This document shows positions 42,247 through 42,618 of a stretch of 64,000 nt of DNA, one piece after another. Source of the DNA: Gammaproteobacteria bacterium (GTDB lineage Bacteria > Pseudomonadota > Gammaproteobacteria > Eutrophobiales > Eutrophobiaceae); assembly GCA_030829985.1 (NCBI GenBank), contig JAURNW010000011.1, positions 79,086 through 143,085 on the forward strand, read 5' to 3'. Below the pieces are notes generated by a model that saw nothing but the letters and a program-made list of their open reading frames with translations, searched no databases and was not told the DNA's origin. The stretch's first letter is position 1. Each line of letters opens with the position of its first letter. Made by a program: the position numbers and the translations under genes.

Positions 42247-42475
42247 AATGCGCACAGAATGCCAAAATGACCATGGCTATCTCATATGAGACAAAACTGT
42301 TAAAAACTAACCACCTATATATATAAATAAATATATCAGCAACTTACACCATTTTTATTCATCTTCAGGGGATCGAGGCTGATGTTATTTCATCATAAAT
42401 CAAAGCTGCATCATAACTGTGCATAAATACAATTTTTCTGTTGACAAAAGGATAAAGGCGGGAACTCATTTGAAT

Positions 42476-42618
42476 GTCTATACTCTATACATATGTAGTA
42501 AATTTTTCCTCCCTCTCTCCCTTGGGGGGAAAGATCACCCGGTTCTCCCCAGCCGGGAAACTCTGGCCCCGGATGCCATCCTTTCCCCTAAAAGTAATCA
42601 CCCGGGGCTACTTTTTTA
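42476..42618 (+). ncRNA. candidate small regulatory RNA at the spf(Spot 42)/ErsA-syntenic position (5' end approximate)
   Basis: There is no plausible ORF. A TTGACA hexamer sits at 42441-42446. The region 42500-42600 is GC-rich and structured against an AT-rich background and holds three CU-rich single-strand-like tracts (CCTCCCTCTCTCCC, TTCTCCCC, CCATCCTTTCCCC). A plus-strand intrinsic terminator (TGGCCCCGG...CCGGGGCTA followed by CTTTTTT at 42564-42618) ends 12 nt from the convergent engB stop, the same position spf occupies next to yihA/engB in E. coli. Confidence 0.35.

Follow-up and report, generated by a model that had tools for sequence, protein, structure and literature searches.

A conserved three-hairpin small RNA gene convergent with engB in uncultured marine Gammaproteobacteria, with a predicted RpoE/AlgU-type promoter

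The slot convergent with engB (yihA in Escherichia coli) is used by three described small RNAs (sRNAs), Spot 42, ErsA and anti-hemB. Anti-hemB is the ncS04 RNA of Burkholderia cenocepacia, a 105-nt, Hfq-bound RNA with a CU-rich loop that lies between hemB and engB in the orientation '<- -> <-' and whose levels were unchanged in the conditions tested (PMC5688073). The Pseudomonas gene ersA lies in the polA-engB spacer and is sigma-22-dependent (PMC8575079, PMC8395346), and its product targets mRNAs via a 34-nt U-rich unstructured domain II between stem-loops 1 and 2 (PMC8575079). At a different locus, sX13 forms three stable stem-loops with CCCC or CCCCC loops, represses mRNAs whose ribosome-binding site (RBS) carries G-rich motifs and accumulates under stress (PMC3771888). 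Here we describe a further occupant of the engB slot, the engB-flank RNA, found at ~42493-42617 on the plus strand of a 64,000-nt stretch of a gammaproteobacterial genome assembly (GCA_030829985.1, contig JAURNW010000011.1; the whole stretch is referred to as the window).

The engB-flank RNA is a real sRNA gene and represents a new family at a known sRNA slot, and it falls into none of the curated Spot 42, ErsA and anti-hemB families. That the gene is conserved and non-coding, and that its product folds into three hairpins, each exposing a C/U-rich CCC(C) tract and the last being an intrinsic terminator, is well supported. We further consider it likely that this RNA of ~123 nt is a trans-acting regulator, induced by envelope stress, whose C-rich loops pair with G-rich RBS sequences.

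Structure and conservation of the engB-flank RNA

The RNA body comprises the following features.

42493-42617 (+): predicted sRNA transcript, ~123-125 nt; the 3' end is the U-tract and the 5' end is predicted
42503-42534 (+): stem-loop 1 (SL1), stem 42503-42513 / 42524-42534, loop UCUCUCCCUU at 42514-42523
42538-42557 (+): stem-loop 2 (SL2), stem 42538-42544 / 42551-42557, loop CUCCCC at 42545-42550
42564-42617 (+): stem-loop 3 (SL3), a long intrinsic terminator hairpin, stem 42564-42575 / 42599-42610, followed by C and U6 (42611-42617)
42508-42521, 42543-42550 and 42576-42588 (+): CU-rich tracts CCTCCCTCTCTCCC, TTCTCCCC and CCATCCTTTCCCC, as read from the sequence

The segment was folded on both strands. 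The plus strand gave the three hairpins at -47.6 kcal/mol, better than 200 of 200 shuffles (z = -3.1), in line with the structured RNA that the first-pass annotation had expected here, while the minus strand of the same segment was unremarkable (z = -1.1). That annotation had also described a GC-rich segment embedded in AT-rich DNA, and the G+C content is indeed 0.55 in 42500-42599 against 0.28-0.33 directly upstream.

Species-representative genomes were scanned with EngB, giving 20 loci from uncultured marine Gammaproteobacteria, several of them labelled Thiotrichaceae. In 17 of the 20 the engB-side spacer could be aligned from ~42413 to 42618. A covariance model, R1, built from a plain MAFFT alignment of this spacer, found exactly one copy in each related locus; scores were 110-140 bits in the window and in 17 species-level genomes, with 127.5 bits over 42489-42621 for the window copy. 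Copies were also found at 32-80 bits in five more distant genomes (EngB 57-68% identical), which keep the synteny L31-(SNase)-M48 peptidase converging on engB-cytochrome c4-dsbA. A pattern scan of marine metagenome contigs added 10 further members, all of which adjoin engB and, where the retrieved stretch reaches that far, also the M48 gene; 3 of the 13 pattern matches were dropped as chance matches inside GC-rich coding sequence. Conservation in related genomes thus extends to 17 related genomes, 5 distant genomes and 10 metagenome contigs.

The alignments carry the signature of a conserved structure. In the MAFFT alignment 90.7% of cells were paired and 12 pairs showed compensatory change, whereas slid controls gave 39-62% pairing. 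For 24 copies aligned under the model, 94.2% of 636 cells were paired, against 36-62% in slid controls, and compensatory change was present in 21 of 28 pairs; none of 500 shuffles of this alignment reached the observed pairing values on any measure. As the 24-copy alignment was fitted to R1, the independent MAFFT figures are the more conservative. The compensatory base changes across the 24 copies place the feature far beyond chance. All three stems contribute: compensatory change was seen in 8 of 11 pairs of SL1 (92.5% of cells paired), 5 of 7 pairs of SL2 (94.4%) and 8 of 10 pairs of SL3 (95.7%).

The three CU-rich tracts noted in the first-pass annotation turn out to be unpaired, conserved loop sequences, and across the family the loops consist of such unpaired C/U-rich tracts. 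The SL1 loop (CUUCCC/CCUCCC) has a CCC(C) tract in every member of the displayed alignment, TCCCCAG is near-invariant in SL2 (UCCCCAG in loop 2), and loop 3 carries UUYCYCCC, with CCAUCCUUUCCCC as the apical region (42576-42588) in the window. Between the end of SL1 (42534) and the start of SL2 (42538) there are 3 nt; the family consensus for this linker is 2-4 nt. The inner arms of the terminator hairpin are TGGCCCCGG (42564-42572) and CCGGGGCTA (42602-42610), followed by CTTTTTT (42611-42617), which is the plus-strand intrinsic terminator proposed earlier, ending 12 nt from the engB stop codon (42630-42632). A motif in its loop, AGTAAT, had been put forward as a feature shared with E. coli spf. 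It is present both at 42593-42598 and in spf, but it is not conserved in the family and is best regarded as a coincidence.

The sRNA strand is taken to be the plus strand because of the U-tract, the G-U cells and the direction of the promoter. A T-tract follows the last hairpin on the plus strand only, and a consensus scan found no minus-strand terminator there, in agreement with the earlier statement that an opposite-strand U-tract is absent. In the 24-copy alignment 44 cells are G-U; read on the other strand they would become A-C mismatches, and the paired fraction falls from 94.2% on the plus strand to 89.8% on the other. The small open reading frames 42419-42619 and 42474-42692 (66 and 72 codons) are present mechanically in the window, yet they are absent from 15 of the 20 relatives and truncated in the closest one. 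A protein-coding reading of them was rejected for lack of conservation, and the suspicion that they are artefacts of the RNA gene was justified.

Two kinds of departure from the single-copy pattern were found. In one abundant estuarine or marine lineage (L025 3609-3962, minus strand), three tandem sRNA units of ~115 nt each score 34-39 bits, an expansion into sibling sRNAs. The motif GGAACT-N16-TCTAA precedes the first tandem copy only, and the second and third may be expressed by read-through or processing. Conversely, L006 (4612-4715) and L009 (4629-4755), from the metagenome-assembled genomes UBA7357 and UBA7359, are natural loss-of-RNA lineages. The RNA body is deleted in L006, whereas in L009 it has decayed (68 bits, 31% G+C, C-poor loops and a mutated -35 sequence, AAGAAC).

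In the window, the neighbours recognised by Pfam are an M48 peptidase gene (40603-42114, +) upstream and engB (42630-43250, -) downstream, followed by genes for cytochrome c4 and DsbA (+). The sRNA gene and engB converge, with 12 nt between the end of the plus-strand U-tract and the engB stop codon, and the cytochrome c4 gene lies beyond. The peptidase resembles BepA in its protease domain only and has a lipoprotein-like N-terminus, which makes it an envelope-protease neighbour of a putative envelope-stress sRNA; at 126 bits, where the equivalog cut-off is 570, it does not qualify as BepA.

Predicted promoter and the conserved upstream element

A promoter motif, GGAACT-N16-TCTAT (42461-42488), lies directly upstream of the RNA body.

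42461-42466 (+): predicted -35 element GGAACT, of RpoE/AlgU (extracytoplasmic function sigma-E) type, invariant in 22 of 23 genome loci
42484-42488 (+): predicted -10 element TCTAT, which reads TCTAA, TCAAA or TCCAA in relatives

The distance from GAACTN to the -10 element is exactly 16 nt in 22 of the 23 genome loci, while the sequence of the spacer varies freely. Positions 1, 2 and 4 of the -10 element (T, C and A) are invariant in these 22 loci. It is usually TCTAA, with one TCAAA and one TCTAT, and TCCAA occurs in two metagenome copies. Of the genome loci, just L009, where the RNA has decayed, lacks the GGAACT motif, and the 42461-42488 site is the sole match to GGAACT-N16/17-TCTA in the window. 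The RpoE/AlgU consensus has been given as GAACTT-N16-17-TCtgA (PMC3819740) and as GAACTT-16/17-TCCAAA, with Shewanella examples ending in TCTAC or TCTAT (PMC4336711). At the level of sequence, then, GGAACT-N16-TC[T/A/C]A[A/T], with its TCAAA and TCCAA variants, matches an RpoE/AlgU-type consensus, as for ErsA, and an AlgU/sigma-22 (RpoE-type) promoter motif of the kind that marks ErsA is kept in 22 of 23 loci.

With 5-7 nt allowed between the -10 element and the start site, transcription would begin at ~42493-42495, predicting an RNA of ~123 nt. ErsA is 132 nt long. The P. aeruginosa ersA locus has GAACTT-N17-TCAGA in the same place, and there the 5-7 nt spacing gives a length near that value.

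The first-pass annotation had pointed instead to the hexamer TTGACA, which is present at 42441-42446, as a promoter element. No -10 hexamer was found 16-18 nt after TTGACA in any member, and a consensus scan gave no plus-strand sigma-70-like site in 42000-43400. TTGACA as a sigma-70 -35 element was rejected, since it has no -10 partner at 16-18 nt and is kept in L006 and L009 despite loss or decay of the RNA; the sigma-E-type motif sits 15 nt downstream instead. Since the block that contains it is retained in L006 and L009 without an intact RNA, we assign TTGACA, with moderate confidence, to an upstream element and not to the core promoter of the sRNA.

This upstream element belongs to a spacer whose remainder (42150-42446) is also strongly conserved. 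Two parts of it were recognised.

42418-42446 (unstranded): conserved upstream block, TGTGCATAA (DnaA-box form TGTGNATAA), a ~14-nt A/T-rich spacer and TTGACA
42212-42246 (unstranded): cluster of three DnaA boxes resembling the core of a DnaA-reactivating sequence (DARS), TTATCCACA-TTTTC-TGTGGATAA-CTC-TGTGGAAGT; not part of the RNA

The DnaA-box-like site at 42418-42426, TGTG[C/T/A]ATAA, varies only at the degenerate N and lies 35 nt upstream of the promoter motif. Each of 18 loci has a single occurrence of the block TGTGCATAA-N14-TTGACA, with none elsewhere in those loci or the window, and the upstream DnaA-box blocks are intact in both L006 and L009. The 42418-42446 block is probably a place within the upstream element where a protein binds, which could be DnaA, at a fourth site, or a regulator acting between the DARS-like core and the promoter of the sRNA. 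Of the site types considered by eye, only the DnaA-box form TGTGNATAA fits; CRP, LexA, Fur, PhoB, CpxR, IHF, Fis, sigma-54 and sigma-32 sites, and a minus-strand promoter, do not.

A DARS core consists of three DnaA boxes, of which I and II are opposed and 5 bp apart and III follows II in the same orientation (PMC6868365), and DARS1 lies at 0.81 Mb in E. coli (PMC6868365, PMC5742627). This core architecture is found at 42212-42246. The E. coli DARS1 core, which we located in the bioD-uvrB spacer (L029 708-742), reads TTATCCACT-ATTCC-TGTGGATAA-CCA-TGTGTATTA, and the window cluster has the same geometry (9+5+9+3+9) and the same box orientations. The exact three-box pattern was found in 25 loci (L001-L005, L007, L009, L012-L017, L024, L027, L028 and nine metagenome loci); wherever this was checked, it lay on the same strand, ~200-330 nt upstream of the RNA. 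The cluster is thus a candidate DnaA-reactivating sequence, a kind of element that promotes ADP release from ADP-DnaA, of this uncultured marine gammaproteobacterial clade, and may interest those who study replication control outside Enterobacteriaceae. An origin, oriC, is unlikely here as the flanking genes converge on the region and do not diverge from it.

In the interval from the DnaA-box core to the sRNA promoter there are two more near-invariant non-coding blocks, GACAAAACTGTTAAAAACTAACC (42290-42312) and TTACACC (~42349-42355), set apart by a variable A/T-rich stretch; neither gave an Rfam match or a recognisable motif.

The arrangement raises a wider proposal of two separate parts, which we consider unlikely: that the sRNA gene is physically and functionally coupled to the DARS-type element, and that the engB slot is one ancient sRNA locus of beta- and gammaproteobacteria. 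Throughout the clade, the DnaA box TGTGNATAA and the invariant TTGACA stand ~15-45 nt upstream of the sigma-E -35 element, and the DARS1-like core 250 nt upstream. Were the coupling true, DnaA occupancy would modulate an envelope-stress sRNA, or stress-induced transcription would modulate DnaA reactivation, and envelope stress would be linked to replication initiation.

Proposed mode of action and competing explanations

In the mechanism that we favour, the envelope-stress sigma factor RpoE/AlgU would drive transcription of the engB-flank RNA, which would accumulate when folding of outer-membrane or periplasmic proteins is perturbed. Its C-rich loops would pair with Shine-Dalgarno regions that are G-rich, in several mRNAs, and so keep ribosomes from binding. 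Loops of sX13 act in this way on 4G motifs, and the same is predicted for CU-rich sRNAs of Burkholderia. The targets, whose translation would be repressed, may be outer-membrane or other envelope proteins, by analogy with the sigma-22-dependent ErsA, which represses oprD and algC. Hfq may take part: ErsA and ncS04 use or bind it, and sX13 does not.

A weak target lead is a TonB-dependent outer-membrane receptor gene (30855-33113, minus strand) at -12.6 kcal/mol, ~2 sd from background, whose RBS reads UUGGGGAA / UUGGGGAAUAUAUAUG and complements the sRNA's UCCCC(A) loops.

A number of observations count against the assignment as a whole. Prediction underlies the transcript itself, the position of its 5' end and its dependence on the sigma factor. 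The -10 element in the window is TCTAT and not TCTAA, and the chance of one occurrence of GGAACT-N16/17-TCTA in 64 kb is 18%; the case for the promoter therefore rests on its conservation. The promoter of anti-hemB looks sigma-70-like (TGgTATATGAT) and not sigma-E-like, and lacks GGAACT. Loss of the RNA in L006 and its decay in L009 mean that it is dispensable in some lineages. The duplex scan of start regions in the window gave weak candidates only, with no target emerging. Finally, matches to known RNA families were all below the gathering scores and inconsistent between members, the best being sX13 in the window, anti-hemB in L008, L015 and L024, and none on the RNA strand in L017.

One competing explanation is that the RNA regulates engB in cis, by antisense pairing or transcription interference, colliding or pairing with read-through engB transcripts rather than acting in trans. 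The genes converge across a 12-nt gap with no minus-strand T-tract, so engB transcripts could extend antisense across the sRNA gene, and the pairing of such a gene with engB is kept across beta- and gammaproteobacteria. Selection has nevertheless acted on the CCC tracts of the loops and on hairpin pairing, not on complementarity, which is automatic for an antisense pair, and those sRNAs of this slot that have been characterised (Spot 42, ErsA and the Hfq-bound ncS04) act in trans. We regard a purely cis-acting role as quite unlikely.

An equally improbable explanation is that the RNA truly belongs to the Spot 42 or ErsA family, having diverged a long way within it, and shares its function, whether catabolite repression or regulation of the AlgC/OprD type. 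It has the slot and orientation of spf and ersA and the promoter type of ErsA, and the terminator loop of ErsA is also C-rich (CCCCUCCCCAUAC). The best match to R1 in each Burkholderiaceae, Pseudomonas and E. coli locus was the resident sRNA, at 8-17 bits that come largely from the terminator: ErsA scored 17.3, 15.1 and 9.8 bits in the Pseudomonas loci and spf 12.3 bits in the E. coli locus, the matched parts of ErsA and spf being mostly the terminator and an A/U-rich linker. These matches to ErsA, spf and anti-hemB are hints only, weak and terminator-driven.

The family models speak against such membership. At gathering thresholds, Rfam found only a tRNA in the whole window. Permissive scans (E <= 10) were then applied to five members, the window (42100-42700), L008, L017, L015 and L024. 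Neither the Spot 42 model RF00021 (gathering score 80 bits) nor the ErsA model RF01719 (Pseudomon-1/ErsA; gathering score 50 bits) matched any of them, yet the same models gave 122.8 bits on E. coli spf and 137-143 bits in three Pseudomonas loci, respectively. In addition, the 34-nt U-rich domain of ErsA is absent, SL1 and SL2 being 3 nt apart, the 5' targeting regions of Spot 42 have no counterpart, and the weak R1 matches are dominated by generic terminator features. The description of the gene as Spot 42/ErsA-like in the first-pass annotation therefore fails as a statement about family, while its analogy of genomic position with spf and ersA was correct.

Less probable still is that the segment is only the 3' end of engB, serving as a terminator or stabiliser of engB mRNA or as a shared bidirectional terminator, with no independent transcript. 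The last hairpin is 12 nt past the engB stop codon, and as no other engB terminator was detected, engB transcription probably ends in the hairpin or reads through it. Against this stand a T-tract on the plus strand only and G-U pairs favouring that strand, two further covarying hairpins with conserved single-stranded C-rich loops beyond the last one, an invariant promoter motif that faces engB at a fixed distance, and three tandem units in one genome, for which a 3' untranslated region would not account; in E. coli, Pseudomonas and Burkholderia, moreover, the sRNAs found in this slot are proven to be independent. That the conserved segment acts as DNA, as part of the neighbouring DnaA-box (DARS-like) element, is barely credible: the whole 500-nt spacer is unusually conserved and the 42418-42426 site is close to the promoter motif, but compensatory double substitutions that keep the hairpins (21 of 28 pairs) are what selection leaves when it acts on RNA or single strands, DnaA-box blocks that persist without the hairpin segment in L006 and L009 are separable from it, and no DnaA box was found within 42489-42621.

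Comparison with known sRNAs

The order of genes around the slot is similar in the groups compared. In E. coli it is polA, spf and, convergent with spf, yihA. In Pseudomonas polA and ErsA are followed by the convergent engB and then by genes for cytochrome c5, cytochrome c4 and DsbA, and in three Burkholderiaceae genomes the cytochrome c4 gene diverges from engB, which converges with anti-hemB, a mirror image of the window. The polA gene is not present in the 64-kb window, where the upstream neighbour of the sRNA gene is the M48 peptidase; convergence with engB is present. The divergent engB / cytochrome c4 pair is kept in Burkholderiaceae (L021-L023), Pseudomonas (L031-L033) and the window clade (window 42630-44745), and an sRNA gene converges with engB in all three, with a far-side gene that varies (hemB, polA or M48 peptidase). 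dsbA follows cytochrome c4 in the two gammaproteobacterial groups only and not in Burkholderiaceae.

The 3' flank of engB thus looks increasingly like a long-lived sRNA site across beta- and gammaproteobacteria. CRP-cAMP represses spf. The occupants keep the position and the terminator module, while targeting regions and promoters turn over (CRP-repressed for spf, sigma-22, sigma-70-like and sigma-E-like), and, were the slot one ancient locus common to Spot 42, ErsA, anti-hemB and the engB-flank family, its promoters and seed regions would have been rewired repeatedly.

By sequence and structure, anti-hemB is closest to the engB-flank RNA, although below threshold. The anti-hemB model RF02837 gave 34.2 bits (E = 1e-6) in L024, 27.4 bits in L008 and 16.2 bits in L015, against a gathering score of 49.5 and 80-84 bits for controls in Burkholderiaceae; at E <= 10 there was no match in the window copy or L017. 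Where it matches, it does so over its full length and in register (SL1 with its CU-rich loop, SL2 and the terminator), and SL1 of L024, UCCCGC-AACCUCCCUUA-GCGGGA, is nearly identical to anti-hemB CCCCGC-UUCUCCUCCCUGA-GCGGG. The layout is also the same, with cytochrome c4 divergent from engB and engB convergent with the sRNA. Anti-hemB differs in having a C-rich loop in SL1 only, a U-rich SL2 loop and a short terminator, and it is betaproteobacterial, with hemB and not an M48 peptidase gene on the other side. The engB-flank RNA and anti-hemB are thus probably related, though distantly, and differ in their promoters.

ErsA resembles the engB-flank RNA in its convergence with engB, with engB-cytochrome c4-dsbA on the far side, in having an AlgU/sigma-22 (RpoE-type) promoter in the same position, in length (132 nt vs ~123 nt) and in its three stem-loops, of which the last is a long terminator hairpin with a C-rich apical loop, CCCCUCCCCAUAC. 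It differs by its 34-nt U-rich domain and by polA as its upstream neighbour. Spot 42 shares the slot and orientation relative to yihA/engB and an A/U-rich linker followed by a GCCCC..GGGGC terminator, a likeness that is strongest in the L025 copies. It differs in its single-stranded 5' seed regions and in lacking both C-rich loops and a sigma-E motif, and spf overlaps the annotated small-protein gene spfP.

The best functional and mechanistic analogue is sX13 of Xanthomonadaceae, whose loop 2, CUCCCCA, is as in the engB-flank RNA. Like sX13, the engB-flank RNA has three stable stem-loops with CCCC apical loops (UCUCUCCCUU, CUCCCC and ..CCUUUCCCC..), unpaired family-wide, an architecture that the two RNAs share and that is no proof of homology. 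The sX13 model RF02232 (gathering score 50) matched weakly, over its full length, in the window (21.4 bits) and L024 (19.9 bits) and gave no match in L008, L017 or L015 at E <= 10. Both sX13 and LhrC were rejected as relatives as their weak matches fail to recur; the permissive scans also returned small nucleolar RNAs and fragments of long non-coding RNAs. sX13 further differs in its location, with polA upstream, a hypothetical gene downstream and no convergence with engB, and in being Hfq-independent.

In the enterobacterial sRNAs MicA, RybB and MicL, an RpoE-type promoter drives an sRNA that lowers envelope protein synthesis. The predicted regulatory logic is the same as that of the engB-flank RNA, with no relation in sequence or structure; these RNAs have single-stranded 5' seeds and lie at different loci.

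The engB-flank RNA therefore represents an sRNA family that had not been characterised, from a marine gammaproteobacterial clade that is both abundant and uncultured, and gives a clear, testable hypothesis of sigma-E-type induction and anti-Shine-Dalgarno C-rich loops. It joins a promoter of the ErsA type to a body like that of anti-hemB and loops like those of sX13, which makes it a useful intermediate in studies of sRNA evolution.

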